Of a stretch of DNA of 64,000 nucleotides, positions 13,708 through 64,000 are shown in pieces (within the stretch, counting starts at the first letter, position 1; each line of letters opens with the position of its first letter). Made by a program: the position numbers and the translations under genes. Origin of the DNA: Bdellovibrionales bacterium. GTDB taxonomy: Bacteria > Bdellovibrionota > Bdellovibrionia > Bdellovibrionales > JAUICD01. The notes under the pieces were generated by a model. It did not search any database and was not told the origin of the DNA. It saw nothing but the letters and a program-made list of their open reading frames with translations. Location: the NCBI GenBank assembly GCA_965197425.1, contig CBDANC010000012.1:96001-160000 (forward strand), written 5' to 3'.

Positions 13708-14250
13708 TTAGGATTGAATATAAAAAACATACTTAATACTATATCTGCCTTCAGAAATTTTAGTGTAAACTTCAATTGGGTTTCCAGAGAATTCCAATTT
13801 ATTATCCTGAACAAACTTATCTATTTTTGGATAAACTTTTAAAGGTCCTACAGCAGGAGAGCCTTCAAAATCCACAATTAATGCCCTTTTATTAGGAAAA
13901 TTTTTGGTCTTAAATGGTATATCAATGTTAGGGAGGGTTTCTAGCAGACAACCAGCATGGCTTCTTAGATTGGAAGCTTCAGTTTCTTTAGGATCATCTA
14001 AGTATTCACCAAAAGTAACAATACAAGCTATTGAATTTTCATTAGCCCAATCCTCAACCTTAGCTATGCTCCGATTAATTTTGTGATACTCTCCCTCATG
14101 CTCAGTATAGATAGCATTTATACCACCCCATCTACTATCTACTATCTCAACCTTCTTAAATACACCTATGCTAATAGACACAGTTAAGATCAAGCTAATA
14201 AATACAACAAAAATAAATAACAAATATGCCCAAATAGGTAGCTTCTTCAT
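13708..14250 (-). CDS. Membrane-anchored GyrI-like domain protein
   Basis: N-terminal TM, HEGEYHKI, FGEYLDDP, PIEVY. Confidence 0.7.
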   Translation of the reverse strand: MKKLPIWAYLLFIFVVFISLILTVSISIGVFKKVEIVDSRWGGINAIYTEHEGEYHKINRSIAKVEDWANENSIACIVTFGEYLDDPKETEASNLRSHAGCLLETLPNIDIPFKTKNFPNKRALIVDFEGSPAVGPLKVYPKIDKFVQDNKLEFSGNPIEVYTKISEGRYSIKYVFYIQS

Positions 14251-14317
14251 TTACATAACCTCTTTAAGCGTTATCCCCAGACAATACCTCACTCTCAGCT
14301 CCTTAAGTCAATCTAAT

Positions 14318-14575
14318 AGGTCTTTCCCGGAATGACCGATTGCCCGACTGCCTGATTAGATCTGGGATCTGGCATTCGGGGATCCGTTACCTGCATCCGC
14401 CACCAGGCACCTGTTTGCCAGATTGCCCGATTGCCTGACTGCCAGAATAACCGTGCCGTAGGCACAAACACATGCACCCGTAGGGTGCCGCCTTGCAGGC
14501 GGAGGCATTTAATGGTGGTTGAACATACACCGTGTTCTGTATTTCACCAGCCAAATACCTGCACCCGTAGGGTGC
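14318..14575 (+). repeat. Family C periodic repeat followed by family B GNA-triloop hairpin unit
   Basis: GATTGCCCGACTGCCTGA 8-mers and GGATCTG 7-mers; GTGCC-GTA-GGCAC; GCACCC-GTA-GGGTGC twice. Confidence 0.88.
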
Positions 14576-15432
14576 TAGTCTCTTTGTCCGAATCTTAGTT
14601 TTGATCTTAGTATTTCTAGTTGATTGGTATTGTGTGGTAGTAGCATATGGTGAAATTTATTTGAATGTTTGATTAAAATTTTATCTTTGTATGTTAAGTC
14701 AATTTGTCTGTATCCATCTATCATAAAGATAGCTTTTTGTTTTTCTTGTGTTAATTGAATTTGTATTTGGCTGGTATCTGGTATTGTGAGTGGTCTATTT
14801 GTTAGGCTGTGTGGGCAAATAGGTGTAATTACGGTTGCTGGTATTTCTGGGGTTAGTATAGGTCCTCCTGCTGATAGATTATAGGCAGTGGAACCAGTTG
14901 GAGTGGCCACTATTAAGCCATCTGCTTTCAGATCACAAAGCAAGGTATCATCTATTTTGATTGCCATGGATATAAGTCTACTAAAGCTACCTCTTTCAAA
15001 CACAATATCATTTAGAGCCAAAATTTTTCCATTACTGAATTTATCTTTAGAATTTATTAGGCTAATTTCTAGCATTGAGCGTTTGGATACAACAAGTTTA
15101 CCTTCTAATGCCTCAGTGATTACCTTAATTAAATTGTCTGATCTAGCTTGAGTTAAAAAACCTAAGGATCCCATGTTAATACCCAGAACAGGTATTTGAG
15201 TGTGAAATCCAAGCATTCTTACGGCATTTAGGTAGGTACCATCTCCACCTAATACTACAACAAGCTTAAGTTTTAGCAAAATTTTGTCAGTAAGTTTGGC
15301 AGTATCTTTAAGAGGGGTTTGTTCAGGATGATGATAACAAGTACAGCCTTTATTACTAAGCCATTTAACTATTTCAAAGGATTTATCTAAAACCTCAGGT
15401 TTATTGGGTCGGTATACTATCGCAATGTGCAT
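14575..15432 (-). CDS. nadK: NAD kinase
   Basis: GGDGT, GSLGFL, LND, DGLIVATPTGSTAYNLSAGGP. Confidence 0.96.
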   Translation of the reverse strand: MHIAIVYRPNKPEVLDKSFEIVKWLSNKGCTCYHHPEQTPLKDTAKLTDKILLKLKLVVVLGGDGTYLNAVRMLGFHTQIPVLGINMGSLGFLTQARSDNLIKVITEALEGKLVVSKRSMLEISLINSKDKFSNGKILALNDIVFERGSFSRLISMAIKIDDTLLCDLKADGLIVATPTGSTAYNLSAGGPILTPEIPATVITPICPHSLTNRPLTIPDTSQIQIQLTQEKQKAIFMIDGYRQIDLTYKDKILIKHSNKFHHMLLPHNTNQLEILRSKLRFGQRD

Positions 15433-15477
15433 AAAAATCCACTAATACACCAATTATAAAAACACAACCTTTTTATA

Positions 15478-15589
15478 CCACCGCCCTACAGACGGAAGTA
15501 TTTAATAGTGGTTGCACACACCACATTTCGTATTTCACCAGTTAAACACCCATACCCGTAGGGTGCTAGTCACCGGCACCCGTAGGGTG
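15478..15589 (+). repeat. Family B unit overlapping the nadC 3' end
   Basis: TATTTCACCAGTTAAACACC and CCCGTAGGGTG twice. Confidence 0.85.
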
Positions 15590-16423
15590 TGGAGGAATGT
15601 AGGATAGGCTTTCAATTAGTTGGAAGGTGAAGTTGCCGCTTGGTGCTTGGTTGGTGATAGCTCCGACACTTACATAGTTTATATCCATTGAGGCAAGTTC
15701 TGAAACTCTATCTGGGCTTATTATACCGGTTACTTCTTTTTCAATTGTAGGCGGAATAATTTTAAGTGCTTTTTGTATATTTTTGTTTGGCATATCCATA
15801 ATTACTCTATCTACTTCAAAATCAATTGCTATTTTAACTTCATCTAGGTTGGTCACTTCTACATGTATAGGTAGGTCTTTATTTTTTGTTACAATCTTCA
15901 AAACTTTTTTTAGGTCGTTATCTAGCGCAACTATGTGATTTTTTTTCACAAAAATTGAGTTACTGCGATTGTTGATAGTATTATGTCCGCCCCCAGCTAC
16001 TACTGCTTTTTTTTCAAGTTCTCTTAAAAGTGGCCTATTTTCGTTGGTATCTAGCAGTTTTATTTTATCTTTGAGTACTTCTTTATAGCATTTGGTAAAA
16101 GTGGTGATACCCGTTAGATGGCTTAAAAAGTTCAGGGCAACTTGACTTGCGAAGAGCATTTTTGTAATTGTACCTTCAATCAGACAGACTGTCTGATCTT
16201 GCAAGACAATATCTCCGTCTTTAAATTTCCAAGAAACTTTGGCATCTGGATCATTATATTTTATGCAACTTTCAAAGACACTACATCCAAATACCACTAG
16301 GTCTCCCAGTGCCTGAACTTTTGCAATTCCTACGACACCATCTAATTTAAGTAAAGTTGCGGTTTTGTCTTCGTAGGCATCCTCTAGATATGCAATTCTT
16401 ATCAAGGATTCTAAGGATTCCAA
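15566..16423 (-). CDS. nadC: Quinolinate phosphoribosyltransferase-like protein with degenerate active site
   Basis: Overall NadC layout (ALNFLSHLTGITT, GGG.N, EVTNLDE, SVGAIT) but DTRKT and HR motifs replaced. Confidence 0.75.
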   Translation of the reverse strand: MESLESLIRIAYLEDAYEDKTATLLKLDGVVGIAKVQALGDLVVFGCSVFESCIKYNDPDAKVSWKFKDGDIVLQDQTVCLIEGTITKMLFASQVALNFLSHLTGITTFTKCYKEVLKDKIKLLDTNENRPLLRELEKKAVVAGGGHNTINNRSNSIFVKKNHIVALDNDLKKVLKIVTKNKDLPIHVEVTNLDEVKIAIDFEVDRVIMDMPNKNIQKALKIIPPTIEKEVTGIISPDRVSELASMDINYVSVGAITNQAPSGNFTFQLIESLSYIPPHPTGAGD

Positions 16424-16426
16424 CTA

Positions 16427-17245
16427 TTATTCATCCATTTTTGAATCGGCCATTAGCTTTCTAAGCTCTTCTTTTACATACCTGGTGACAATATTAGGAA
16501 GTAGTTTTCTTACTATATCTCTGGTGGTGTTTTCTAAAATTTCTATTTGTTCATCGCGAGATACTCTAGTGTCTAGGTTAGCATCCAGACCATCATTAAT
16601 ACTGTCTATGGGATTAAAATCAGTACTTGAAAAAATATTACCCCCCTCTAGAGTCTCTGTTTTAGCTTGTTCATAATCAGGGGGTTTTTGGCAGTCTGTG
16701 CTGTTATTCTCAAATCTATATGATTTATCAAGGCTAAAATCAGTCTTTTTTAAGTTTGGATGATTTGAATTTCTAGAACCAATACTTGAAAGCGGTACAT
16801 TAGAAAAGTCATCTATATTTTGGGGTCTACTAAATGTATGTTCAGTGTGTGATTGGTTAGTTGTTTCATGAATGGGATTTTGATCTATGTTAAATAGATT
16901 TTTCATAATTTCTTTTAATGATTTTATATCGAATGGTTTTTTTAGGTTTGCGTCAGCTTTTGATTGTAAAAATCTCGCTTCATCTAGCTTTAAAAAGCTA
17001 CTGGTCATAATTACAACTTTGGTATTTTCTAAAAGTTTTTCTGATTTAATTTTTTCAGAAACTGTATAACCATCTTCATGCTCTAGTAGAACATCTACAA
17101 ATATTATGTTGGGGTTTAACTTGATAGCCTCTTCCAGGATATTGGAAGTTACTTTAGTTACGGTAGTTTTGTAGTCTCTTAACCCCAGCTCTAGTGCTTT
17201 TTTTACACTATCGCTGCTGTCAGCTAAAAGCACACTTAGCGTCAT
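16427..17245 (-). CDS. Response regulator receiver protein with low-complexity tail
   Basis: VLLADSS...IIFVDVLL...LKKPF. Confidence 0.8.
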   Translation of the reverse strand: MTLSVLLADSSDSVKKALELGLRDYKTTVTKVTSNILEEAIKLNPNIIFVDVLLEHEDGYTVSEKIKSEKLLENTKVVIMTSSFLKLDEARFLQSKADANLKKPFDIKSLKEIMKNLFNIDQNPIHETTNQSHTEHTFSRPQNIDDFSNVPLSSIGSRNSNHPNLKKTDFSLDKSYRFENNSTDCQKPPDYEQAKTETLEGGNIFSSTDFNPIDSINDGLDANLDTRVSRDEQIEILENTTRDIVRKLLPNIVTRYVKEELRKLMADSKMDE

Positions 17246-17280
17246 GGCGCTAGTAAACGACCAATTAATCCACTAGTCAA

Positions 17281-17432
17281 GAAGTAACAACTCTCTATAG
17301 CAAATTGTGCGCCTTACGAACACAAAGTGGCAGTTGGCAAGGTTTTTTGCCGTAAAGAATAGCTGTCTTTGAGGGTTATCTATTACAATAGTGCTTTAGT
17401 TTTAGCGTACGCATTAGTACAGAAGATGTTTC
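17281..17432 (+). ncRNA. Candidate rod-shaped structured RNA (unassigned)
   Basis: Nested pairings by eye: GGCAA/TTGCC, GGCAGTT/AGCTGTC, GTGCGC/GCGTAC, AACA/TGTT. Confidence 0.25.
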
Positions 17433-17555
17433 ACTTATAGCTCTAACCTCCTACAAGCTACTTGTATATACCAAGTGTATTCATTATTTATATTGATGAA
17501 TATGAGGATAATGTTAAATTAAGAGGACATAGAGATATTAGAAAAAAGGGAGGCC

Positions 17556-19672: not shown

Positions 19673-19917
19673 AGCAACTTTTATCGTATTATACCTACAA
19701 AGCTGGGCAACTCTGATTTCGCCTAGGCAACTTTCAGTTCTTGCTGAGACCTTGTGTGGAAGGATCAGCATCTTGTTCTAGTGTTGGGCAACCACTCAGT
19801 CAAAAAACCGACCGCAGGGAGGTTATTTCAATTGGATAATATAAAGATTTATCCCATGAGCCAATTGAACCAAAGTGAACAAGTCCACTTGTTTTTGACT
19901 TCGTTCGGAAGACCTTG
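19660..19917 (+). repeat. Family A cluster with 64-bp module (19808-19871)
   Basis: Near-identical to 2458-2588. Confidence 0.92.
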
Positions 19918-19940
19918 AGCTTGACAAGGTAATTTTATGT

Positions 19941-21950
19941 GTGAGAGTTTTATTGTGTGAATCTTTTTTTAAGAGCTTATTTAGCAAAATCTTGATGCTG
20001 GGTACCCGTAGCATAAAAGTAAATTTACCTAAAGGTTGTAAGGTTTTTGACTCTGATGGTGTGTCAGGCCCTAGTGTATTGGATGTAGCTTGTTCTATTA
20101 GTCCTAACTTAGCTTCCAATGCTCTTGGTGGTTTGGTGAATGGTAAGTTAGAGGATGTTAGGTATAATTTATCTGATGGGGATCACCTTGAGATTATTAC
20201 ATCTAAACATCCTAGGTCTCTTGAGGTGGTTAGGCACTCTGCTGCGCATGTATTAGCTCAGGCTGTTCAGAGTTTATTTGATGTGCAGGTTACAATAGGT
20301 CCTATTATTGAGGACGGTTTTTATTATGATTTTTATTGTAAGGGTTTTTCTTTTTCAAAAGATGATTTTCCTAAGATAGAGAAAAAAATGAGAGAGATTA
20401 TAAAGTCTGATTTTGTGATTGAGCGTTCTGTTTTATCTAAGGCTTTGGCTTCGGAGAAGTTTGAAAATCTTGGTGAGAGTTTTAAGGTTGAGCTTATTAA
20501 TGACTTAGATTTGGATGAGGTAAGTATTTACACTCAGGGTGACTGGTTAGATTTGTGCAAAGGACCTCATGTTCAAAGGACTGGTCAGATTAAGGAATTT
20601 GCTCTTTTATCTAATGCTGGTTCTTATTGGCGTGGTGATGAAACTCGTCAGTCTTTACAGCGGATCTATGGCACTGCTTGGAATACTAAAAAAGAGCTTG
20701 GTGATTATTTAGAAAAGTTGGAAGAAGCCAAAAAAAGAGATCATCGTGTGCTAGGCAAGCAGATGAAGCTTTTTTATTTTAGTCATCATTCTCCTGGGAG
20801 CCCTTTTTTTACTCCGAATGGTACAATAATTTATAATGAACTTACATCTTTCATAAAGGAACTTTATATAAAGAGGGGTTATCATGAGGTTATAACTCCA
20901 CAAATTTATGATTGTGAAATGTATAAAACTTCTGGTCATTATGATAATTTTTCCAAGGACATGTTTTTTATAAATCAGGATAAGGAATATGCTTTAAAAC
21001 CTATGAATTGTCCTGGACATTGTTTGTTGTACAAGATGGGTCAATATTCTTATAGAGACTTGCCTTTAAGGATTGCTGATTTTGGTAGGCTTCATCGTTT
21101 TGAGCGAAGTGGTGTGTTACATGGTATGACTAGGGTAAGAACAATGTGTCAAGACGATGCTCATATATTTTGTACTGAGGATCAGTTGGATTTCGAAATT
21201 AAGTCTTTTATAGAGTTTTTAAAAGAGGTTTATGAAAAGCTGGGTCTTGAGGATATTGTGGTAAAAGTTGCAACTAGGCCTGATAAGAGAGTTGGTTCTG
21301 ACAAGTTGTGGGATGTTAGTGAAAAAATTTTGATGGATTCTTTGAGTGCCATGGGTATAACTTTTTCTGTTGAAAGTGGTGAGGGTGCTTTTTATGGTCC
21401 TAAGATGGAGTTTCACATAACTGATGCTATTGGCAGATCTTGGCAGTTGGGAACTTTACAATTGGATTATTCTATGCCAAGTAGATTTGGTTTGGAGTAT
21501 ACAGATAGTTCTAATAAAAAGTGTACTCCTATAATGTTGCATAGAGCTATTTTAGGAACTTTGGAGCGTTTTATAGGTGTTTACATAGAACATTGTGCGG
21601 GTCATCTCCCTACTTGGCTTTCTCCTGTACAGGTTGTGATAATGAATGTTTCTGAAAGTCAGGCTTCATATTCCAAATCTCTGTTTGATAAACTTGTGGG
21701 GGAAGGTATTAGGGTTAAGTTGGATAGTAGAAACGAAACTCTGGGTTATAAGTTAAGAGATGCACAGGTGGCAAAGGTACCGTATTTTGCTATTGTTGGA
21801 AAAAAGGAAGTTTCGGATAACACAGTCTCTGTGCGATCCAGTTCTTCTAAAGAAAGCATTAGTATGGATGTTGGCAAATTTGTAAATAATTTGAAAAAAG
21901 AAATAATTAACAAGGATTATAGGAGGTTTTATCAGACTAAGAAGGAATAG
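19941..21950 (+). CDS. thrS: Threonine--tRNA ligase (start possibly ATG at 19995)
   Basis: RHSAAH, DLCKGPHV, KPMNCPGH, GAFYGPK, HRAILGTLERF. Confidence 0.98.
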   Translation: MRVLLCESFFKSLFSKILMLGTRSIKVNLPKGCKVFDSDGVSGPSVLDVACSISPNLASNALGGLVNGKLEDVRYNLSDGDHLEIITSKHPRSLEVVRHSAAHVLAQAVQSLFDVQVTIGPIIEDGFYYDFYCKGFSFSKDDFPKIEKKMREIIKSDFVIERSVLSKALASEKFENLGESFKVELINDLDLDEVSIYTQGDWLDLCKGPHVQRTGQIKEFALLSNAGSYWRGDETRQSLQRIYGTAWNTKKELGDYLEKLEEAKKRDHRVLGKQMKLFYFSHHSPGSPFFTPNGTIIYNELTSFIKELYIKRGYHEVITPQIYDCEMYKTSGHYDNFSKDMFFINQDKEYALKPMNCPGHCLLYKMGQYSYRDLPLRIADFGRLHRFERSGVLHGMTRVRTMCQDDAHIFCTEDQLDFEIKSFIEFLKEVYEKLGLEDIVVKVATRPDKRVGSDKLWDVSEKILMDSLSAMGITFSVESGEGAFYGPKMEFHITDAIGRSWQLGTLQLDYSMPSRFGLEYTDSSNKKCTPIMLHRAILGTLERFIGVYIEHCAGHLPTWLSPVQVVIMNVSESQASYSKSLFDKLVGEGIRVKLDSRNETLGYKLRDAQVAKVPYFAIVGKKEVSDNTVSVRSSSSKESISMDVGKFVNNLKKEIINKDYRRFYQTKKE

Positions 21951-22500: not shown

Positions 22501-22806
22501 AGGTCTTCCGAGTACATCTGCTTCTTCTATAGGGTTTTTGTGGTCTATGAGATCTAATATAGCTTGTGTTTCTCTTAGTGAACCTAAGCTTATTGCATAG
22601 AATCTTTTTCTATCTTTTGCTGTTGGCTTTGCACTTCCTTCTGCAATATTTAGTAGAATGCTCAAAGTAGCTCTTTGAAATTGATTTTTGAGCGGTTCTC
22701 TCAGATAAAGGTTTTTTGAGTTTTTATAAAACTCTTTAGCCAGTTGGTATGTTTTTAATTTTTTTGGAAAAATTAGGGATATGACAGATTTCTGTTGCCG
22801 GATCAC
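22489..22806 (-). CDS. Four-helix-bundle protein, copy 2, C-terminus replaced at a repeat end (possible pseudogene)
   Basis: LKNQFQRATLSILLNIAEGSAKPTAKDRKRFYAISLGSLRE; diverges from copy 1 after EEADVLG at GGAAGACCTT. Confidence 0.8.
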   Translation of the reverse strand: MIRQQKSVISLIFPKKLKTYQLAKEFYKNSKNLYLREPLKNQFQRATLSILLNIAEGSAKPTAKDRKRFYAISLGSLRETQAILDLIDHKNPIEEADVLGRPLCF

Positions 22807-22811
22807 AGATA

Positions 22812-22867
22812 CAGATCCCAGATCCCAGATCCCAGATCCCAGATCCCAGATCCCAGATCCCAGATCT
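22812..22867. repeat. Heptamer tandem repeat (CAGATCC)7 + CAGATCT
   Basis: Read directly from the sequence. Confidence 0.97.
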
Positions 22868-22904
22868 AATAATGAATCAAGCTAGGTTTATTGTCAGTGG
22901 CCTC

Positions 22905-25463: not shown

Positions 25464-25465
25464 AC

Positions 25466-25933
25466 CAAGGTTTTCCTAACGAGACCAATAAGGCGAACTT
25501 CGTTTGCCTTTTTTCAATTGGTTCACGGGATAAATCTTTATATTATCCAATTGGATGAACCTCCTTTGCAGTCGGTTTTTTCAATAAAGGTGAGGTTAGC
25601 GAACAGCAAATAAATCTGGCTTTGCCAGTTTTTTGCTGTGAGTGCCTGTTTCACCGAGTGGTTGCCCAGCTCTACACATGTCATCAAACTCATCTCCACT
25701 GAGGGTATCGTAATATGATTTGCTTTAAAACTCAAGCACTGACCCCCACTTGCCAACAAAGTGAACTTGTTTGCTTGGTTCAATTGGCTCACGGGATAAA
25801 TCTTTATATTATCCAATTGAAATAACCTCCCTGCGGTCGGTTTTTGGCCGAGTGACTGTTTCCAGGTCTAACTAAGGCTAGGGAACTTTCATATTTCACC
25901 AATTCATCTTTTAGCTTGATTAGGAAGACCTTG
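25466..25933. mobile_element. Composite family A element bounded by 14-bp inverted ends, carrying two 64-bp modules
   Basis: CAAGGTTTTCCTAA...TTAGGAAGACCTTG (1 mismatch); modules at 25513-25575 and 25777-25840. Confidence 0.72.
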
Positions 25934-25958
25934 ACCCGTTGGGTTGTGACAAAGTATA

Positions 25959-28532: not shown

Positions 28533-29510
28533 TTATGAAATTGGAAAATAGCACTTAATCAGTCTACCATTTTCTATGGTGTCAGGTGGATTTTTTGATG
28601 CACAAATATCTTTTGCGTATTCACATCTAGGATGAAACTGACAACCGCTAGGTCTATCCACCAAATCAGGCACTGTTCCCTTTATACTATTTAATCTCTT
28701 ACTTGCTTCTAACTGAAAACCCGGCAAAGATTTTAACAAGCCAATTGTGTAAGGATGTCCTGGGTTAAACAATAATTGATGTCTTAAGCCAGACTCAACT
28801 ATATGACCTGCATACATAACCTGAATTCTATCAGCTACTTCAGATGCTAAGCTAATATCATGGGTAATAATAATAAGTCCCATTTTGTACTCTTTCTGAA
28901 TTTTTTTAAGCAAGGAAATTATTTGAGATTGTATTGTTACATCCAATGCAGTGGTAGGTTCATCGGCAATTAATAGCTCAGGGCCGGCTGCCATTGATAT
29001 AGCGATCATTATTCTCTGACTCATTCCACCAGACAACTGATGAGGAAAAGCTTTAAGCCTCATTGCTGGATCAGGAATTCCAACTAAGGTTAAAAGCTCC
29101 AAAATTTTTTCTCTTCTCTGCTTTTTATCTAAAACTCTTCCTTTTTTGTCTTTGATATTATGGGTTCTTAGTACTTCATCTATCTGAAATTCAACAGTGA
29201 AACTAGGATTTAAACTGGTCATGGGGTTTTGAAAAACCATAGACATTCTTTTGCCTCTTAATTGTCTAAACTCCTCACTACTAATGTCCAACAAATCTAT
29301 ACCATCAAATAATAGTTTATCTGCCTTTACCCTGGCATTTGAGGGTAATAGACCCATAATGGCAAGACTAGTAAGACTTTTACCGCAGCCACTTTCACCC
29401 AAAAAACCCAAAGTTTCAGATCTATCCAGCTTAAAACTAACACGATCAACAGGCCTGATACGACCTCTCAAAGTCTCAAACTCAATAATTAAATTTTCAA
29501 CCTCTAACAT
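28533..29510 (-). CDS. dppD: Dipeptide ABC transporter ATPase
   Basis: GESGCGKS, LSGGMSQR, DEPTTALD. Confidence 0.92.
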   Translation of the reverse strand: MLEVENLIIEFETLRGRIRPVDRVSFKLDRSETLGFLGESGCGKSLTSLAIMGLLPSNARVKADKLLFDGIDLLDISSEEFRQLRGKRMSMVFQNPMTSLNPSFTVEFQIDEVLRTHNIKDKKGRVLDKKQRREKILELLTLVGIPDPAMRLKAFPHQLSGGMSQRIMIAISMAAGPELLIADEPTTALDVTIQSQIISLLKKIQKEYKMGLIIITHDISLASEVADRIQVMYAGHIVESGLRHQLLFNPGHPYTIGLLKSLPGFQLEASKRLNSIKGTVPDLVDRPSGCQFHPRCEYAKDICASKNPPDTIENGRLIKCYFPIS

Positions 29511-29529
29511 TTTTTTATAGCCCCTCTGT

Positions 29530-29729
29530 CCAACTACCCAACTGCTTGATTAGATCCGAGATCTGGCACTCAGGGATCTGTTATCTGCATCTGGTATCCG
29601 CCACCAGGCACCTGTTTGCCAGATCACTGACCCCGAGCCCGTTTAATCTAAAAACATACATCATATTTTGTACTCCACCAGTTAAATACCTGCACCTGTA
29701 GGGTGCAAATACCCGCACCCGTAGGGTGC
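29530..29729 (+). repeat. Family C + family B repeats inside the dpp operon
   Basis: ATCCGCCACCAGGCACCTGTTTGCCAGAT identical to the 14396 region; GCACCC-GTA-GGGTGC abuts the dppC stop. Confidence 0.9.
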
Positions 29730-30595
29730 TATTTTTTTAGTCTAGGGTCTAACGCATCTCTTAGTCCATCTCCTAGTAAGTTAAATGCTAGTACTACTAT
29801 TAGTATACACAAGCCTGGTAGTGTAACTAAGTGTGGTGCACTTTCGATATATGGTCTTGAGTCTGATAGCATTGTCCCCCATTCTGCTATTGGTGGTTGA
29901 GCGCCTAAACCCAAGAAACCAAGTGCAGCGGCATTTAATATTCCATCGCTAAATCCTAATGCGCCTTGAACTATTAGAGGAGCAGTACAGTTTGGTAGTA
30001 TGTTAGAAAAAATAATTCTAATATTAGGTGTTCCATAAGTTTTGGATGCTATAACATACTTCTTTTTTTTCTCAGCCAGTGCACCTGCCCTGGCTAATCT
30101 AATAAACCCAGGTAGAGCCACAAAACTTACGGCTACAATAGTATTTAGCAAACTAGGTCCTAGAATGGATACTACAACAATAGCAAGTAATATACTGGGT
30201 AGGGCCATTAATATATCTACAAGCCGCATGATTGCCTTATCTAACCAACCACCAAAATAACCTGATATCAAACCTAAAACTGTACCAACACTCATTGAAA
30301 ATAATACAACTAAAAATCCAATTCCCATAGACACTCTTGCTCCATGAACAAGTCTACTTAGCATGTCTCTGCCAATTTCATCAGTGCCTAATATAAAATT
30401 ACCTCCGTCCCAGAATGGAGGGCTTATATGAGAATCAAAGAGTCTATTTTGTTCATAAGGAGCGATTAAATCTGCAAATAGAGCTACAAATACAAAAAAA
30501 ATCACAACAAAAAGGCTAAATAAAGCACCTTTACTGCTAGAAAAGTACTTCCAAAATTCTTTAAACGGTGAAGGAGGCGTATGTAGATCAGACAT
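29729..30595 (-). CDS. dppC: Dipeptide ABC permease
   Basis: LGTDEIGRDMLSRL, LGFLGLGAQPP.AEWG, FNLLGDGLRDALDP. Confidence 0.93.
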   Translation of the reverse strand: MSDLHTPPSPFKEFWKYFSSSKGALFSLFVVIFFVFVALFADLIAPYEQNRLFDSHISPPFWDGGNFILGTDEIGRDMLSRLVHGARVSMGIGFLVVLFSMSVGTVLGLISGYFGGWLDKAIMRLVDILMALPSILLAIVVVSILGPSLLNTIVAVSFVALPGFIRLARAGALAEKKKKYVIASKTYGTPNIRIIFSNILPNCTAPLIVQGALGFSDGILNAAALGFLGLGAQPPIAEWGTMLSDSRPYIESAPHLVTLPGLCILIVVLAFNLLGDGLRDALDPRLKK

Positions 30596-35047: not shown

Positions 35048-35065
35048 TTTTTTATCCAACCCCAT

Positions 35066-35207
35066 TGATCAAGCAATCGGGCATTTTTTTGGAAATTAAA
35101 GATACAACAGATCCCTGGTGGCGGATGCCATATGCAGATAACAACTCCCAGAATGCCAGATCCCAGAGTTAATCAGGCAAAAGTCTTCAACACTGACCCC
35201 CGCTTGT
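35066..35207 (-). repeat. Family C repeat including the first codons of a four-helix-bundle gene (relic)
   Basis: TTTTTTTGGAAATTAAAGATAC...CCTGGTGGCGGATGCCATATGCAGATAAC matches ~7702-7763. Confidence 0.85.
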
Positions 35208-35231
35208 CAAAAAAGTTCGCTTGTTATTGCT

Positions 35232-36044
35232 TTGGTTTTAGGTTTTAGTAAATGTCTTATGTCTTCATTTATTAGAGCTTATTTATTTTTAGGTATTTTA
35301 TCGTTTGTGTTGCTTTTGGCAGGCTATGTTCTAGGAAATAGGATTGGTCTAATGGTAGCTTTTATGTGTGTATTTTACATAAACTACTATGTTTATTTTT
35401 ATCTAGATTACACGCTTAAAAATCAGTTTGGTTGTGTTCAGATGGAGGGTAGAGATCCTTGGGGGGTTCTTTTATTTTTAAAAGAGACATGCTTGAAATT
35501 AAAAATACCTACTCCTAAGTTATTTACTACTGATTTTGATCTACCTCTTGCCTTTTCTGTTGGCAGATCTAAGAATGCTGCCAACATAGTAATTTCCAAA
35601 AAAATGCTTTCAATTTTGGATAAAGAGGAGCTTTTTTCTGTTATCTTGCACGAGTTATACCATATAAAAAACCGAGACATCTTGGTTCATAAAGTAGGCT
35701 TATTGATAATTAACTTATTTTCAGATCGAGGAGTTTTTAATTTCTTGAGTAGAAAGTATTTCAATCAACCCATATTCTCTCTTTTCTTTTTTTTGATAGT
35801 ACCTAAAAAGGCGGACTATGAAGCTGATAAATTTGCAAGCAGTTTTTTAGGAGATGCAGAGCCTCTTGCCAGTGCATTGTGGAAGATTAGCTCTTATATG
35901 AGTACAAGCTCTAACACCACTATAACAAAAGCCTCCCATATATTTATAGTAAACCCCTTGACCTTATCAAATGAGGATATATATTCTAAAAAGCCAATTG
36001 TGGCTAGAAGGATAAAAAAACTGTTAGGTAGGTATCCAATCTAG
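35232..36044 (+). CDS. M48 (HtpX-like) zinc metalloprotease
   Basis: AFSVGR, HELYHIKNRD, EAD, LASALWKI. Confidence 0.82.
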   Translation: MVLGFSKCLMSSFIRAYLFLGILSFVLLLAGYVLGNRIGLMVAFMCVFYINYYVYFYLDYTLKNQFGCVQMEGRDPWGVLLFLKETCLKLKIPTPKLFTTDFDLPLAFSVGRSKNAANIVISKKMLSILDKEELFSVILHELYHIKNRDILVHKVGLLIINLFSDRGVFNFLSRKYFNQPIFSLFFFLIVPKKADYEADKFASSFLGDAEPLASALWKISSYMSTSSNTTITKASHIFIVNPLTLSNEDIYSKKPIVARRIKKLLGRYPI

Positions 36045-37806: not shown

Positions 37807-38056
37807 AGCCCTTCAAATGAATCTAAAAACTGGATTGGTGAAGTGCCAGAGCAACGCTCCAACGAAACCAGAACAGTTTTTAGATTCAGTGTTGTGCAGA
37901 GAACAGGCCCTCGAGAAACCTATGTTTAGTTGAGATATTGGAGATAGAAATAAGATTTTGCCTAATGCGTGGTTCTCAGGGACTAAGTAGTTTCAAAGGT
38001 CTTCAAGTAAGTCATCAAAAAGTGAACTTGTTTTTTGTTTCACTAATGGAGCTTTA
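37807..38056. repeat. Palindromic cluster related to family A
   Basis: 15-bp perfect IR TGAATCTAAAAACTG/CAGTTTTTAGATTCA; AAGGTCTTC; AAAGTGAACTTGT. Confidence 0.7.
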
Positions 38057-38118
38057 TTAGCTAAAGTGATCTTGGTAGACTGTTAGTTAGAAGAGACTAT
38101 AAAAGGAGGTATCAAGAG

Positions 38119-52155: not shown

Positions 52156-52244
52156 TACTGATTAAGCATTGCAACCAAACTAGCAGAGCTAGTTTTTTGT
52201 CACATTCTTTTAAAATCTTTAAACCAATCGTTAAGTCCTAACTT

Positions 52245-53776: not shown

Positions 53777-53867
53777 ATTACTAAAGCCTCCTCAGATATG
53801 TTTTTGCTGTTAATTTCCAATCAAACTGTATAGCTTACTTTTTCCAATTTTCCAACCCCAACACTTA

Positions 53868-54336
53868 AAAGGCCAATGAAAAAACTGGCAAACCAACCAT
53901 CAGGGAGGTTCTTTCCGCTGAAGGTGAGCCTAATGAGGCTAATAAGATGGACTGGTGTAATGCAGGACGAAGTCCAAATGAAACCAAAACATCTTTTAGC
54001 CGAGTGGTTGCTTCTTGGTCTGACTAAGGCTAACACCAACATTACCCTCGCCACCACCAAAAATTGGCTGAGCCTTTGAGATTGGGATTCTAAGTGACCG
54101 TGTCAAAACGCTGAGCAACCACTCGGCTAAAAAACCGACCGCAGGGAGGTTATTTCAATTGGAAAGTATAAAGATTTATCCCGTGAGCCAATTGAACCAA
54201 AGTGAACAAGTCCACTTGTTTTTAACCTCATTGGAAGACCTTTGTAACGGGATCAGCATCGTGTCCAGTGCTGGGCAACCACTCGGCAAAATAAGTAGGC
54301 ATAGCCTCCTTATTTTTGCCTCGTTCGGAAGACCTT
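53868..54336 (+). repeat. Family A cluster with 64-bp module (54135-54198), a variant module (53893-53985) and a 19-bp inverted repeat
   Basis: TTTTAGCCGAGTGGTTGCT/AGCAACCACTCGGCTAAAA; ends GGAAGACC at the ssb stop. Confidence 0.92.
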
Positions 54337-54781
54337 AGAATGGGATATCTTCGGTATGTTCAGGAGCAAAATTAGGTTCGGAGTTTACCGCCCCTGCCTT
54401 GGTGTCTGAATCCGTTTTGTCTTGAGCTTGGCTACTAGCTTGAGATCGATCTTGCGAGTTTAGAAAAATTACATTGCTAGCAACGATATCAGTTGAGTAT
54501 TTTTTTACGCCTTGATTATCTTCCCATGATCTTGTTTGAAGTCTTCCTTCTACGTAGACCATTCGGCCTTTTGCCAGGTATTGAGCACAAATCTCAGCTA
54601 ATCTACCCCAAACAACTATTCTGTGCCATTCTGTTCTTTCTTGCATATCGCCGTTTTTATCTTTCCATTGATCACTTGTAGCTACATTAAACTTTGTGAT
54701 TGTTTGACCGCTAGAAGTTTGCATTTTATCCGGGTCTCTTCCCAAATGACCAATGATTGTGACTTTATTTACACCAAACAC
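54335..54781 (-). CDS. ssb: Single-stranded DNA-binding protein
   Basis: VNKV.IIG.LGRDP, TEWHRIV, terminal DIPF. Confidence 0.97.
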
Positions 54782-56518: not shown

Positions 56519-56592
56519 AAACCTACAACTATTTGTTTGTTGAATGACTAGGTTATTTTTGGAATAATCTTTTAGGGAGTGTGGAGCAGTAA

Positions 56593-58470: not shown

Positions 58471-58505
58471 TAGCTTTTAGTGTGGAGCTACAAATGAATG
58501 AAAAA

Positions 58506-58580
58506 TGGATGGGGCAGCAGGATTCGAACCTGCGCATCATGGGATCAAAACCCATTGCCTTACCGCTTGGCCATGCCCCA
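58506..58580 (-). tRNA. tRNA-Gln(TTG)
   Basis: TGGGGCATGGCCAAGCGGTAAGGCAATGGGT-TTG-ATCCCAT...GGTTCGAATCC...CCA cloverleaf. Confidence 0.97.
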
Positions 58581-58654
58581 ATAAAAATAAACTTTCACCT
58601 AAAAAACCAAATTTGTCCATACTTAAAACATGGCCCCAAACACCAGATTTTTTG

Positions 58655-59170
58655 CTAAAAACTTAATACTATTTTTCTAAAATTGGGGTCTTCTACATAA
58701 TCAATACTAACTTCTACCACAGGCATTTTTAAATCAACTTCCTTTAAAAGCCCTGGCCACTCCACTACTATTAACCTACAAATATTTTTATCACCCAACA
58801 AATTTACTACATCCCAAAATCCAGTAGAATCTAAGTCCACCAAACTCTTTAATCTATAAAAATCAAAGTGATCTATGACATAATTTTCAAAAACATAACT
58901 GTTGTGAATAGAAAATGTAGGAGAACTTACCAAACTAAATTTTCCACCACTTAACCTATTAACCAAAAATTTTACAAACTGAGTTTTTCCAGAGCCTAAA
59001 TTACCACTTAATAAAATAACACTACCAAAAGTTAAATTATCACAAAATTTATAAACAACATTCTCTAAACCCTTCAAATCAACTTGCTTTTCCACCACCT
59101 TGCAGGTGGAAGCATTTGATGGCGATTCAACATACATCATATTTTGTACTCCACCGGCCAAATGCCACAC
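58655..59170 (-). CDS. tsaE: t6A ATPase TsaE (true start probably GTG near 59098; first ~24 ORF codons are repeat-derived)
   Basis: GNLGSGKT, SPTF, HFDFYRL, VEW. Confidence 0.93.
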   Translation of the reverse strand: MWHLAGGVQNMMYVESPSNASTCKVVEKQVDLKGLENVVYKFCDNLTFGSVILLSGNLGSGKTQFVKFLVNRLSGGKFSLVSSPTFSIHNSYVFENYVIDHFDFYRLKSLVDLDSTGFWDVVNLLGDKNICRLIVVEWPGLLKEVDLKMPVVEVSIDYVEDPNFRKIVLSF

Positions 59171-59279
59171 CCGTAGGGTGCCACCTTGCAGGTGGAGGCA
59201 TTTTTAATATTATCTAAAACACACATCATATCTTGTACTCCACCAATTAAACACCTGTGCCGTAGGCACTTGTAAGGCA
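59092..59279 (+). repeat. Family B, two tandem units
   Basis: CCACCT-TGC-AGGTGG twice, CACCC-GTA-GGGTG, GTGCC-GTA-GGCAC; ~59171-59241 differs from ~61078-61148 at 2 positions. Confidence 0.93.
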
Positions 59280-60746
59280 CTAATTTTCTATACTTTTTAA
59301 TATCTTGGGAAGAAGTTTTAAAACATCACTGGCCATCATAGAATTTTTTGAAAATCCCTGTTTTACCCATTCATCTGCAGTTTTGCCATGAACATAAGCT
59401 GCCAAGCCAGCAGCATCCAAAACATCCAAACCTTGTGAAATAAAACCAACAATCATACCAGATAAAACATCACCAGTACCAGCTGTGGCCAACGCAGAAT
59501 TACCAGAGTTAATAATATCTACCCTTTTAGTATTACCAATCAAAGTTCTAAAACCCTTTAATAAAACATTACATCCATACACCTCTGAACATTTTTTAAG
59601 AGCAAGAATCCTATTATTCTCCACTCCCGAAGCACTGCACCCAAGTAAACGAGCCATCTCACCACTGTGAGGAGTCAAAAGCCAACTAGGAGGAAGCTCT
59701 CTAATACCATACCTTGCTAAAACACTTAATCCATCTGCATCTAAAACCACATTTTTTATTCCCTTACTTTTTAAAAAATCAATTAACTCCTTAACCCTTT
59801 CATCTATACCCAAACCAGGGCCTATTGCATATGCCTTGTAATCAACACAAATCTCAGTAACACTTTCAATTTTTGAAGCAATAATATCAGGCGTTTCGGC
59901 CAAAAAACCTTTGGGATCATCAAAGCTATTTAAAAATACATAACCAGAACCAACTCTAAATGCACCACGACTAGCTAAAACCCCAGCACCCCACATACCA
60001 TCTTTACCAGCCACTATACAGGTCTTTCCATTCGAACTCTTGTTGCTATCAAAAGCCCTTTGAGGAAACAAACTGCAAGCAGTTTTTTTATTAAACAAAA
60101 AAGTACTATCAGCAACCTTGTCTACATCAGTATACCCAATATCAACACAAAAAATTTCTCCAGCAAGCCCAGGGCCCTCGCATATATAAAGCCCAGGCTT
60201 AGCTAAACCAAAAGTCAATGTCCACTGAGCTTGTACCGCTTCATTCAAAATTCTACCAGTATCACAATCTAAACCAGAAGGTATATCCACACTAAGCACC
60301 GGAGCAAGAGACTGGTTCATACAAGATATAGCACTAGCATACAAACCATCCACATCTTTACTTAATCCCACACCAAAAATACCATCTAATATAAGACTTG
60401 CCTTATCAAACTTATCTTTAATAGCCTCCGATCTATTAAACTGAACAACATCAATACCCACATCATCCAAATGCTTATTCTTATCTCCCAACAAAATAAC
60501 ACTGACATCTTCAAACCCAGCATCAATCAATAATTTTGCTGCATATAAAGCATCCCCGCCATTATTCCCAGGACCTACCACAACCAAAATAGACTTAATC
60601 TCCAAATAAGAAGAAATTTGATTTTTTATAAATGAAAATAACTCACCCGCAGCCTTCGCCATAAGTTTTTTAGAATCCCCAAGCTCATCAAGCCTCTTGC
60701 ACTCCTCTCTTAAAGCAAGTCTAAACCTAAAATTTTCCCTCATCAT
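59280..60746 (-). CDS. nnr: Bifunctional NAD(P)H-hydrate epimerase/dehydratase
   Basis: GPGNNGGD, DIPSG, LTPHSGE, AGTGDVLSG. Confidence 0.95.
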   Translation of the reverse strand: MMRENFRFRLALREECKRLDELGDSKKLMAKAAGELFSFIKNQISSYLEIKSILVVVGPGNNGGDALYAAKLLIDAGFEDVSVILLGDKNKHLDDVGIDVVQFNRSEAIKDKFDKASLILDGIFGVGLSKDVDGLYASAISCMNQSLAPVLSVDIPSGLDCDTGRILNEAVQAQWTLTFGLAKPGLYICEGPGLAGEIFCVDIGYTDVDKVADSTFLFNKKTACSLFPQRAFDSNKSSNGKTCIVAGKDGMWGAGVLASRGAFRVGSGYVFLNSFDDPKGFLAETPDIIASKIESVTEICVDYKAYAIGPGLGIDERVKELIDFLKSKGIKNVVLDADGLSVLARYGIRELPPSWLLTPHSGEMARLLGCSASGVENNRILALKKCSEVYGCNVLLKGFRTLIGNTKRVDIINSGNSALATAGTGDVLSGMIVGFISQGLDVLDAAGLAAYVHGKTADEWVKQGFSKNSMMASDVLKLLPKILKSIEN

Positions 60747-60751
60747 ACCTC

Positions 60752-61179
60752 ATACTCCACCGACTAAATACCAACCCTACCATAAATTACACCGTATTAT
60801 AAATGTAAGGATTTAGGTGAGTGGCAATAGCTTTTATATAATGGGATCGGCATCAGTGTCCAGAGCTGGGCAACCATCAAGCTAAAAAGTGCCCTGGCTT
60901 CACTTGTACTTTGTACAATCGTTACGTCAGTCCATTTTTTAACTTGATTCGGAAGACCTTGAAAGGTTCAAGCAAAGCGTCCCAGAGTTAATGCTGTTGC
61001 CATGAACCTTATACCATAATGACAAAAAACGGTGAAGCCGAAAGGCTTCGAAAGCCCCCCGCAGGGGAATACTACGCCCGTAGGGCGCCACCTTGCAGGT
61101 GGAGGCATTTTTAATATTATCTAAAACACACATCATATTTTGTACTCCTTCAATTAAAAAATACTACGCCCGTAGGGCG
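60752..61179 (+). repeat. Mixed family B/A/B cluster
   Basis: GGATCGGCATCAGTGTCCAGAGCTGGGCAACC...GGAAGACCTT; GAAGCC-GAAA-GGCTTC; CGCCC-GTA-GGGCG twice. Confidence 0.9.
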
Positions 61180-61892
61180 GTTTTCATTTTTTTTACAGAT
61201 GCTTTCAAGCCGCCATTTAAAGCATCACAGATCAAAAAGTGTCCTATGTTAACTTCCCTCAAATGAGGTAGCTTTGCTATTACCTTAGCATGCTCAAAGT
61301 CCAATCCATGTCCAGCATGAACCAATAAACCAAGTGAATGTGCCTTTAAAGCACTACCTTTAAGTCTCTGCAGCTCAGCCTTTTTGTTCTTAACCAAACA
61401 AAATCTTCCAGTATGAAGTTCAACTGCATCAGCACCAACATTCTTCGAAGCAACAACTTGTTTTATCACCGGGTTTACAAATAAACTTACCTTAATACCA
61501 GCTTTTTTCAAAGCTGTAACAACTCTTTTGATTTTAACTTTGTTTTGAAAAACATCTAAACCACCCTCCGTAGTAAGCTCTTTTCTCTTCTCTGGTACCA
61601 AACATACCCAGTCAGGACAAAGCTTCAGTGCAATCTTAAGCATGCCACTAGTACAAGCCATCTCTAAATTAAGCGAAACTCTAGATTTACTTTTGATAAG
61701 GTGCTTTTTGATCTGAAAAAGATCTTCGTCCTGAATATGCCTTCTGTCCTCTCGTAAATGAACAGTGATTTGATCAGCACCACCCAAGGTAGCACTCTTA
61801 ACCTGCTCCACTATATCAGGATACCAAGTAGTGCCACCTCTAACCTGCCTCAAAGTGGCTGCATGATCCAAATTGACCCCAAGTAGGATCAC
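61164..61892 (-). CDS. pdxJ: Pyridoxine 5'-phosphate synthase
   Basis: LGVNLDH.ATLRQ, HLREDRRHI, TTEGGLD, AGHGL, NIGH. Confidence 0.97.
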   Translation of the reverse strand: MILLGVNLDHAATLRQVRGGTTWYPDIVEQVKSATLGGADQITVHLREDRRHIQDEDLFQIKKHLIKSKSRVSLNLEMACTSGMLKIALKLCPDWVCLVPEKRKELTTEGGLDVFQNKVKIKRVVTALKKAGIKVSLFVNPVIKQVVASKNVGADAVELHTGRFCLVKNKKAELQRLKGSALKAHSLGLLVHAGHGLDFEHAKVIAKLPHLREVNIGHFLICDALNGGLKASVKKMKTALRA

Positions 61893-63247
61893 AGATCACA
61901 CTCCTTTAGAAATTCACAGATTTCCTTAGATGCTTTAGATACCTTATCCTTATTAGAACCTTCAACCAAAACTCTTAAAATTGGTTCTGTACCAGAATAT
62001 CTGATAAATATCCTACCCTCTTTTCCTAAATCCTTTTCTATTTTAGATATAAGATCACTATACCCAGACACACTATCCAAAGACACTTTATTAGAAACTT
62101 TTAGGTTAGTTAATACCTGAGGGGTTTCAGGAACAAGCTTTCTTAAAGCACCAAGCTTTATTCCTTGATTAACCATAATTGCAAGCACATTTAAAGCTGT
62201 TACCAAACCATCACCAGTTGTAGAGTGATCTAGAAAAATTATATGCCCGGACTGCTCTCCACCTAATGTAAGATTTCTTTTTTTAAGCTCACTAATGACA
62301 TACCTATCACCTACATCAGTAGTCACAACATCTATACCATTATCAGACAAAAATTTTCTAAAACCAAAACTACTCATGTGAGTTGCTACAATTTTATTGT
62401 CCACAAGCTTATTTTTTTTCTTTGCTTCCAACGCACAAATAGCCATTATATGATCGCCATTTAAAATACCACCCGATTCATCACACATAATAACTCTATC
62501 ACCATCACCATCTAAACTAATCCCTAAATCAGCAGAAGTTTCTTTCACAACCTTAACAAGTCCCTCTGGATACAAAGCACCACAGTTGTCATTAATGTTA
62601 AATCCATTAGGCTCATTATTTATCACCTTTACCTTAGCCCCAAGCTCTTCAAATATTCTAGGACCTACCTTGTAACAAGCACCATTAGCACAATCTAATA
62701 CCAAAGAAATTCCATCCAAACTCAAATTACTAGGAAATGTATTTTTGACAGAAACAATATACCTACCAGAAGCATCATCTATTCTCTTAGTTCTACCAAT
62801 CTCATCTTCTAAAGAAACCTTTGAGCTAAAATCCTCTTTTACCAACTGCTCTATCTTTTCTTCCAATGTTTTAGAAATCTTAAAACCATTAGAGTCAAAA
62901 ATTTTGATTCCATTGTCATAGTAAGGATTGTGAGAAGCAGATATAATAATACCAGCATCAACTCTCATACTTTGAGCCAAAAAACCAATCCCCGGAGTAC
63001 TAAGAGGCCCTACTAACAAAACATCTATACCCATAGAATTGAAGCCACTAGCCAAAGCCATCTCTATCATATAACCAGATAAGCGAGTGTCCTTGCCTAT
63101 CAACACCTTACGTCTCTTGGTAGTATTACTGCGGTTCTCTCTACCCCTTAAAATCAAACCAATGGCCTGCCCTACCTTTAAAACAAGCTCAGGAGTAATA
63201 GGATATACATTAGCCCTAGAACGAATACCATCCGTACCAAATAACAT
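61889..63247 (-). CDS. glmM: Phosphoglucosamine mutase
   Basis: FGTDGIR, SASHNP, DGDGDR, GGEQSGH, RYSGTEP. Confidence 0.97.
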   Translation of the reverse strand: MLFGTDGIRSRANVYPITPELVLKVGQAIGLILRGRENRSNTTKRRKVLIGKDTRLSGYMIEMALASGFNSMGIDVLLVGPLSTPGIGFLAQSMRVDAGIIISASHNPYYDNGIKIFDSNGFKISKTLEEKIEQLVKEDFSSKVSLEDEIGRTKRIDDASGRYIVSVKNTFPSNLSLDGISLVLDCANGACYKVGPRIFEELGAKVKVINNEPNGFNINDNCGALYPEGLVKVVKETSADLGISLDGDGDRVIMCDESGGILNGDHIMAICALEAKKKNKLVDNKIVATHMSSFGFRKFLSDNGIDVVTTDVGDRYVISELKKRNLTLGGEQSGHIIFLDHSTTGDGLVTALNVLAIMVNQGIKLGALRKLVPETPQVLTNLKVSNKVSLDSVSGYSDLISKIEKDLGKEGRIFIRYSGTEPILRVLVEGSNKDKVSKASKEICEFLKECDL

Positions 63248-63319
63248 CCAAAACCTCCCTAATCTAAGCTTCTTAATAATACTTTACTTCTAGTACCCTA
63301 AGTCAGTTTAATAAACAAG

Positions 63320-63408
63320 TGCCTACGGCACAGGTATTTAATTGGTAAAGTACAAAATGTGATGTATGTTTTAGCTACTGTTAAATGCCTCCACCCGCAG
63401 AGTGGTGG
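63320..63408 (-). repeat. Family B unit, reverse orientation, abutting the ftsH stop
   Basis: GTGCCTACGGCACAGGTATTTAATTGGT...AAATGCCTCCACC. Confidence 0.88.
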
Positions 63409-64000
63409 TTAGACGGTTGCTGGGGCTTTTGCGCCTATGGGTGTTTTTTTGTCTTCCTTTTCTTTCTCCAAACACTCTTCTCTTTGGATATTTTCTTCTT
63501 TTAGAGTTTTATCTCTTTTACTTCTCAAATTCTCGATATCCTCTGAGGTTCCACCTTTCATAAGCAGGTTAACCTCATCCCCGTCTATAGTTTCATATTC
63601 TAGCAGAGTTTTTGCTATATTCTTTAAGATTTGTAAGTTTTGTTTTAGAAGATCTTGTGCTTTTTTATGTCCTTCAGTGACAAACTTTCTCACCTCGGTA
63701 TCTATTTCTCTAGCCGTACTATCTGAGTAATCTTTTTCATGACTAGTTTGCATGCCTAAAAACACAGGGTCGTCCCGTTTTTCAAAGTGAAGAGGACCTA
63801 GCTTTTTACTCATCCCCCATTCACATACCATTCGCCTTGCTATTTCAGTAGCCCTTTCTATGTCATTGCCAGCACCTGTGGTGTAGTCCTTAAAAATAAT
63901 TTCCTCTGCTGCTCTTCCTCCAAATAAAAAGGCTATCATATTGTGTGCCTTTTCCTTGGTTAGATTCAGCCTCTCTTCTTCTGGCAAAGTTTGAGTAACA
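63409..64000 (-). CDS. ftsH: FtsH protease, C-terminal part (5' end outside window)
   Basis: GGRAAEE, TTGAGNDIERAT..AR.MV..WGMS, ETID. Confidence 0.96.
   Translation of the reverse strand, partial: VTQTLPEEERLNLTKEKAHNMIAFLFGGRAAEEIIFKDYTTGAGNDIERATEIARRMVCEWGMSKKLGPLHFEKRDDPVFLGMQTSHEKDYSDSTAREIDTEVRKFVTEGHKKAQDLLKQNLQILKNIAKTLLEYETIDGDEVNLLMKGGTSEDIENLRSKRDKTLKEENIQREECLEKEKEDKKTPIGAKAPATV

Follow-up and report, generated by a model that had tools for sequence, protein, structure and literature searches.

Along 64,000 nucleotides of a Bdellovibrionales genome (C12:96001-160000, referred to here as the window), an initial annotation described the plus strand as changing from A/C-rich on the left to G/T-rich on the right at clusters of small repeats, and read the repeats as possible sources of a mutational footprint. 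The question raised by this locus is whether the change is real at silent sites, which repeats carry it, and how it could arise. The footprint was found beside one family of intergenic hairpins, termed family C, and for the window the claim must narrow to that family.

The source genome is 1.6 Mb in 15 contigs and is 99.37% complete. Genes were called by a custom script (1,425 genes), and those of the window were named with NCBIfam. The score of each codon is its G/T versus A/C content after subtraction of the genome-wide mean for that amino acid, which removes amino-acid composition. A junction is reported as the z of this synonymous residual over 150 nucleotides per side, with the left and right values in parentheses. 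Outward denotes the strand read 5’ to 3’ away from the junction, and a positive sign is the polarity given above. Repeat families A to D were profiled from seeds in the window and searched genome-wide. The sister genome (G001), used for paired comparisons, is without families A to D but has 167 repeat clusters of its own.

Skew flips and the family that carries them

The four hand counts behind the original observation are exact (14161-14220, G5/C10; 14581-14640, G14/C6; 15421-15480, G3/C15; 15601-15660, G22/C6). Both pairs fall in the top 0.03-0.04% of approximately 24,000 equally spaced 60-nucleotide pairs, though they were hand-picked. At synonymous sites, 19 of 1,414 junctions flip from A/C to G/T at z>3.5, and none flips in reverse (z<-3.5). 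The two strongest junctions in the genome both lie in the window, at 29511-29728 (z 5.9; 3.9, 4.5) and 14251-14574 (z 5.2; 2.7, 4.6). A sliding 300-nucleotide scan places seven of the 12 strongest genome peaks in the window, including one near 9650; no classified repeat lies near 16 of the top 25 peaks. The flips are real, and a repeat as the cause of every one is not confirmed.

Family A has 148 matches, family B has 63, family C has 22 bodies and 14 hairpin units, and family D has 26. Over the first 45 nucleotides of the flanking genes the slope is +0.34 beside C (16 junctions), +0.24 beside D (20), and +0.06 beside A and B (110), with +0.05 at 426 repeat-free junctions of at least 100 nucleotides. 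This comparison leaves out 11 genes that overlap repeats or four-helix-bundle genes. Repeat clusters as a class show no excess flip: A and B match the repeat-free level, and pooling all clusters by distance at fourfold sites gave little signal. The mean z of the 16 family C junctions is 1.92 versus 0.28 at repeat-free junctions of at least 60 nucleotides (p 5e-5), and that of the six inside the window is 3.7.

Family C passes the refutation tests set in the initial annotation. At degenerate sites the signal remains, and it is four to eight times that of long repeat-free junctions, which show the same gradient in weak form: the 16 3’ ends beside C have a slope of +0.30 (controls +0.075) and the 16 5’ ends one of +0.25 (controls +0.032). 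On both sides the outward strand is G/T-enriched at silent sites within 200-500 nucleotides, whichever way the gene points. The effect fades by about 500 nucleotides (slope +0.02 at 500-800). The flip follows family C, and the proposed footprint is not supported for repeats in general.

Family C is a multi-copy, intergenic, GC-rich hairpin with a GTA loop and a 5-6 bp stem, supported by predicted folds. The sequence CCCGTAGGG occurs eight times in the window versus 0.06 expected. Its GTAG is the loop plus the closing base, and the next hairpin lies about 4 nucleotides further. Four of the hairpins end no more than 2 nucleotides from a gene end, and several terminal hairpins end in C then T. 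A search made without family labels recovered intergenic C-GTA-G triloops at 10 loci with a slope of +0.26 (z 7.0), and 5-nucleotide loops at 26 loci (z 5.4) that are probably in part C variants. Other perfect hairpins (4- and 6-nucleotide loops, GAA and AAA triloops) were null. Both of the strongest sites carry C and D together, and D without C is weak (p 0.17). Hairpin units of family C also occur within very large genes or at their leaders, beside runs of G or C (C12:83032-83098, C14:350414-350454, and C15:151394-151500).

Derived state and the elements of relatives

The strongest junction separates dppD (28533..29510, minus strand) from dppC (29729..30595, minus strand). It holds a family D copy (29543..29616, minus strand) and a family C copy (29642..29728, plus strand) whose terminal hairpin adjoins the dppC stop codon. 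Thirty of the last 40 dppC codons end in A or C versus 49% in the rest of the gene (p 0.003), and nine of the first 40 dppD codons do so versus 48% in the rest. The dppC 3’ codons quoted in the initial annotation are present, whereas the 5’ end set against them is not unusual (z 1.0). In 11 relatives, 33-54% of the last dppC codons end in A or C, none at p<0.05. The two genes abut in four genomes of the same family and overlap by 1 nucleotide in G001. Judged by this comparison of sequences, the dppC/dppD flip is derived and absent in the 11 relatives.

The paired comparison extends this to other sites. Twenty C-adjacent ends with a repeat-free orthologue in G001 have a z of 1.78 versus 0.11 in G001 (p 0.0023), and 1,526 repeat-free ends have 0.15 versus 0.08. 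Paired contrasts were inflated where the clusters of G001 itself were ignored, so the comparison was restricted to clean ends. The direction of substitution was taken from between-species comparison. At two-fold sites beside C, on the outward strand, the odds ratios are 1.8 and 2.6 for A>G, and 2.6 and 1.4 for C>T (the last with p 0.16). Spontaneous cytosine deamination alone loads the C>T axis, while G:T misincorporation in new DNA or prolonged single-strandedness loads both. Deamination as the sole chemistry is not supported, since the shift on the A>G axis is no smaller than that on the C>T axis. MutS is present in the genome. No Y-family polymerase was found in the three genomes searched, and a search for extra GIY-YIG nucleases gave a single match in each genome, within a 612-aa frame.

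Of 151 genomes of the order, 117 have matches to Y1_Tnp, and neither the source genome nor G001 has one. The low-scoring matches are often elements of about 800 nucleotides with terminal inverted repeats (TIRs) that start at stop codons, and they fit the TIRYT layout as given in the main text of PMC3733652. In the Bdellovibrionales (L151-L190 and L214-L243) these elements start almost exactly at the stop codon, often between convergent genes, and their TIRs mostly begin AGGT. Most of these TIRs, like four of the C hairpins, lie no more than 2 nucleotides from a gene end. Forty loci, picked by open-frame length among 150 listed of 631 Y1 matches, were fetched (17 seen before and 23 new). The gene was found with its neighbours at 33 of the 40, and TIRs at 31 of those 33; PF01797 was confirmed for both genes tested.

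The 3’ ends within 60 nucleotides of a TIR are shifted in 48 of 49 cases versus 311 of 572 control ends (p 1e-20, which is overstated as some loci are one site in kin). Slopes at abutting ends are 0.55, 0.44, 0.22, 0.10, and 0.00 over codons 0-15, 15-30, 30-50, 50-80, and 80-130, respectively, and 24 held-out ends gave 0.56, 0.50, and 0.29. The odds ratios are 3.2 for A>G and 2.3 for C>T. At IS200-like loci the profile anchored on the open reading frame is flat, and these are unusable as a TIR control because only three of nine gave spurious repeats.

One orthologous junction was followed in 30 of 42 matching genomes of one genus, with groups set after the data were seen. Where the gene or a TIR lies at the stop codon (nine genomes), 0.69 of the last 30 codons end in A or C (range 0.48-0.96). 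In 17 genomes without the element the value is 0.47 (0.37-0.56; p 2e-4 versus the element-bearing genomes). Four more element-free genomes have 0.61-0.85, and two of these, at 0.74, are sisters of an element-bearing genome. A split on the gene only (7 versus 23) gives p 0.012. Since the 17 are unskewed and the element-free sisters are skewed, the site had no prior skew, and the scar remains once the element is gone. The derived state of dppC/dppD, the paired comparison, and the TIRYT loci of relatives all support a local mutational footprint.

Sites within the window

The second strongest junction lies between a GyrI-like gene (13708..14250, minus strand) and nadK (14575..15432, minus strand). 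The first 90 or so codons of the former are G/T-shifted on the coding strand (A/C on plus), and are not so in G001. Between the genes are a family D copy (14349..14425, minus strand), which is the heptamer-rich flank of four-helix-bundle cassettes with no gene left here, and a family C cluster (14453..14575, plus strand). The cluster has three GTA-loop hairpins (14453-14465, 14474-14488, and 14561-14575), a TGC-loop hairpin, and one body of about 70 nucleotides; its last hairpin adjoins the nadK stop codon. Family C lies on both sides of nadK, whose 3’ third is A/C-shifted, likewise in G001. The locus differs from G001: in the source genome nadK separates two genes that are neighbours in G001, a four-helix-bundle gene and family A there occupy the place that nadK has in G001, and its neighbours differ in five of five outgroups. 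A repeat-mediated move, in either direction, is possible. Beyond an A/C-rich spacer (15433-15480), a family C copy (15481..15590, plus strand) has two GTA-loop hairpins overlapping the stop codon of nadC (15566..16423, minus strand). The nadC 3’ end is A/C-shifted on the coding strand (outward z 4.2; G001 -2.7), and the junction at 15433-15565 has z 2.8 (-0.2, 4.1).

Three further sites carry family C. The glmM/ftsH unit (63322..63392, minus strand) has z 4.5 (4.5, 1.7) at 63248-63408. The unit at the pdxJ stop codon (61073..61177, plus strand; family A at 60829-60963) flips on the left side only, and partly regionally, with z 2.5 (3.6, about 0.0) at 60744-61163. Two units between tsaE and nnr (59094..59266, plus strand) show a weak flip, with z about 1.1 (2.7, -1.1) at 59138-59279, on an A/C-rich regional background. 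The region from 45 to 64 kb is A/C-rich on plus in both the source genome and G001.

The sole strong family D case in the window is the flank at 22759..22870 (plus strand), with a heptamer tandem, of a four-helix-bundle gene (PF05635, 23S_rRNA_IVP; 22516..22755, minus strand), one of 19 matches in the genome. The flip is one-sided, into the 3’ end of acnA at 22905 (outward z 4.7; G001 0.4), and the junction at 22501-22904 has z 3.2 (-0.2, 4.6). Family D flanks four-helix-bundle genes, and PF05635 has 14 matches in G002, 19 in G004, and none in G001 or G003. Another copy at 7400-7699 (minus strand) scores only in pieces.

Families A and B, whose class flip is not above that of long repeat-free junctions, are exemplified at 2384..2719 and also lie at 3354-3559, 7125-7778, 19673-19922, 25466-25934, and 54099-54346. 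The remaining listed junctions have z 4.0 (4.5, 1.2) at 53777-54334, 2.5 at 37807-38118, and 1.4 at 19673-19994. Several listed sites have other or older causes. The flip near 9650, which the annotation itself had set apart as lacking a clear repeat, is real (z 6.1), repeat-free, and internal to a beta-lactamase-fold gene (9191..10183, minus strand), and it lies at the same codons in G001; the nadK 3’ skew is also shared with G001. The gene thrS, at 19920, is G/T-rich throughout. The ankyrin gene had been offered as a counterexample, and its junction (35048-35258) does have z -1.8; the gene is G/T-rich end to end. The skewed zones lie in single-copy genes outside the repeat mask.

For repeat-free flips, a scan of 4-6-mers found no word with a meaningful effect (slopes of about 0.02 or less), and a dif-like search found nothing identifiable. 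The strongest in-gene flip of the genome (C15:329451, z 7.6) has no repeat nearby and is weaker, at the same place, in G001; it lies in a gene (C15 328995-330905) that we take to be S1-like from its sequence. The sole Rfam match in the window is a tRNA gene at 58509-58580 (minus strand). A lysine-rich, repetitive open reading frame at 6364-7110 matches nothing in Pfam or NCBIfam and lacks a reciprocal orthologue in G001.

Mechanism, alternatives, and known systems

The pattern points to a durable mutational scar, polar in one direction, left as DNA is locally cut and repaired many times over. We favor, by a modest degree, an account in which a nick at the elements initiates outward synthesis or strand displacement. 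One strand at the elements would be nicked repeatedly; the likeliest agent is a HUH nuclease of RAYT/TIRYT type that the assembly no longer contains. The freed 3’-OH would prime a short outward patch and displace the 5’-ended strand. Changes would then build up either in the patch, through G:T misincorporation, or on the strand that it displaces, through C>T plus A>G damage. Either chemistry would account for the polarity seen and for its reach of a few hundred bases. Flips with no repeat beside them may be scars of lost elements. HUH enzymes leave a 5’-phosphotyrosine and a 3’-OH able to prime synthesis, as the text of PMC8266576 describes. That the enzyme of family C was a Y1-HUH protein is put forward tentatively.

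Several observations weigh against this account. No Y1_Tnp/PF01797 match was found in the 99%-complete source genome, where a custom profile reached a best E of 0.032 and no remnant was seen. Across 250 other genomes of the class, family C gave two marginal matches of 19-25 nucleotides, none informative; further searches elsewhere gave no matches or, in one case, two at about chance level. The one notable outside match ties the C hairpin to a four-helix-bundle cassette and not to RAYT: in a Tidjanibacter metagenome-assembled genome (L245:1170-1660), at the 3’ end of valS, a 23-nucleotide match is found next to heptamer repeats on the flank of a PF05635 gene. The 10 C junctions outside the window are modest (p 0.024, 0.067, and 0.013 at 90, 150, and 300 nucleotides), several C clusters show no flip, and copy divergence does not predict flip strength (rho 0.12, 13 junctions, not significant). 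The TIRYT data are nearly all 3’ ends (49 of 51 abutting ends, with two 5’ ends), some from the same site in kin. In G001, the 19 junctions with GTA-loop hairpins have a mean z of -0.23 and no symmetric flip, and the main repeat family (core ACGTTCAAGG, 69 loci; L037-L116) has a one-sided footprint of opposite sign to C. There the strand entering the element from upstream is G/T-shifted; the shift peaks at 150-600 nucleotides and fades out near 2.5 kb. It is seen in each of the four orientation-by-replichore classes and is independent of replichore.

The best surviving alternative, though an unlikely one, is that repair or gene-conversion tracts made the skew, with error-prone outward synthesis as a homing-like element spread or was lost and no repeated nicking. 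Sites do turn over, as the orthologous junction that gains and loses its element across a genus illustrates, and nadK is relocated relative to G001, between two C clusters, with a four-helix-bundle cassette at its G001 position in the source genome. Repeat-free flips exist, and the GRINS of PMC8256042 are linked in that text to gene conversion. Turnover is shared, however, by families A and B and by the four-helix-bundle cassettes (18 loci in G004), which have no comparable flip, and repeat-free junctions of at least 60 nucleotides where synteny is broken have a mean z of only 0.32.

Slightly less probable is host processing of the hairpins (extrusion, fork or polymerase stalling, structure-specific cutting), or a factor of the four-helix cassette, with no HUH enzyme involved. 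The missing HUH gene, the label-free C-GTA-G result, the Tidjanibacter match, and the presence of C with D at the two strongest sites fit this view. The null results for other perfect hairpins and for the symmetric flip at GTA hairpins of G001 do not, nor does the weakness of D without C, and about one chance match is expected for the Tidjanibacter pattern. No GTA hairpin lies within 400 nucleotides of any of 18 four-helix-bundle loci in the source genome. The four-helix-bundle gene itself was rejected as driver: 34 gene ends at the 18 G004 loci show no flip in the first 30 codons, with one 3’ bin (codons 30-50) at z 3.3.

An RNA-level cause is improbable, whether transcription-coupled mutation or selection on mRNA (C-rich Rho-loading ends or avoided hairpin pairing, for example). 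All gene ends have a weak outward bias (+0.03 to +0.05 over the first 90 nucleotides), and the TIR-abutting ends are mostly 3’ ends, as such selection would have it. Beside C, however, the mRNA shifts toward A/C where a 3’ end faces the repeat and toward G/T where a 5’ end does, and therefore the bias tracks DNA position and not the transcript. The flip inside the dpp operon and its persistence after element loss weaken this explanation further.

A mosaic of leading- and lagging-strand blocks joined at repeats, together with hand-picking, is judged equally improbable for the C signal and accounts for part of the original list. Skew autocorrelation spans 5-10 kb in this genome, a mosaic of kb-scale blocks with a per-gene z standard deviation of 2.06, and one-sided z values therefore need caution. 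The wholly shifted thrS and ankyrin genes, the shared A/C-rich 45-64 kb region, and the sliding peaks of G001 (73 positive, 133 negative) agree with such a mosaic. Against it, syntenic C junctions flip as much (mean z 2.35, n=6) as those with broken synteny (2.07, n=7), the signal decays within 500 nucleotides with no reversed junction at the threshold, and dppC/dppD refutes the mosaic as main cause. Bidirectional origins or restart sites, among the readings first offered, are very improbable: the polarity fits a leading-strand switch and the window lies opposite dnaA by G001 coordinates, where frequent restart may occur, but a range of 200-500 nucleotides is far under replisome scale, the single dnaA is on C14, and TIRYT sites show the footprint wherever they are located. 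Where small repeats are close by, skew flips and local codon bias should not be taken as marks of origins, expression level, or horizontal transfer.

Returning to nick-initiated synthesis, the closest anatomical relatives are the GTAG-type repetitive extragenic palindromic (REP) sequences with RAYT/TnpA-REP (PMC3733652, PMC6006769, and PMC8266576). Like C, these are described in those texts as dispersed, intergenic, GC-rich GTAG hairpins, clustered and at gene ends, and the nuclease cleaves single strands at CT or CA. In REPs, GTAG lies 0-2 nucleotides 5’ of a stem with 7-20 paired bases, whereas in C it is the triloop plus closing base on a 5-6 bp stem, and a cognate RAYT gene flanked by repeats was not found in the source genome or G001. 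The word skew does not occur in the main texts of the three papers. TIRYT genes, or TIRtrons, are Y1 nuclease genes between TIRs (PMC3733652), mostly of subclass 2.1 (PMC6006769), going by those texts, whose main parts do not mention Bdellovibrio and gave no flanking footprint. The elements of relatives share this layout, have the same footprint as C, and abut stop codons as several C copies do; no Y1-HUH gene between TIRs was found in the source genome. The PF05635 cassette with heptamer-rich flanks is matched at 22516-22755 with family D, but the cassette alone gives no flip in G004.

An origin-type switch of replication strand asymmetry has the same polarity as C. It differs in being long-range and near dnaA; the C signal spans hundreds of bases, decays by 500-800 nucleotides, occurs at many sites per genome, and is tied to a mobile repeat. 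Bidirectional strand asymmetry is also reported around human CpG islands (PMC2817419). According to PMC8256042, GRINS have GC skew correlated with TA skew, most marked at third codon positions and with abrupt switches, for which error-prone synthesis is proposed. Beside C the skews are correlated in the same way, both two-fold axes being shifted. As defined there, GRINS are duplicated coding regions of >500 bp (>80% identity) in polyketide synthase clusters, whereas here the genes are single-copy and housekeeping, the repeat is non-coding, and the footprint is symmetric. No description of strand-polar synonymous skew beside REP, RAYT, or TIRYT was found in the full-text literature searched, in which few subscription papers are covered.

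In vitro cleavage by RAYT-type nucleases is known and the in vivo route is not, as stated in PMC8266576; a strand-polar scar of measurable length would be a genomic readout of that activity. Domesticated Y1-HUH nucleases and orphan hairpins might then be local directional mutators that rewrite the silent sites of their neighbors, a possibility we hold with some reserve. If so, the sign, symmetry, and length of local skew would record the cutting and repair of each repeat family in vivo, and would map lost elements. The phenomenon is local, strand-asymmetric mutation, narrower than first claimed, closest to GRINS in signature and to REP and TIR elements in anatomy.

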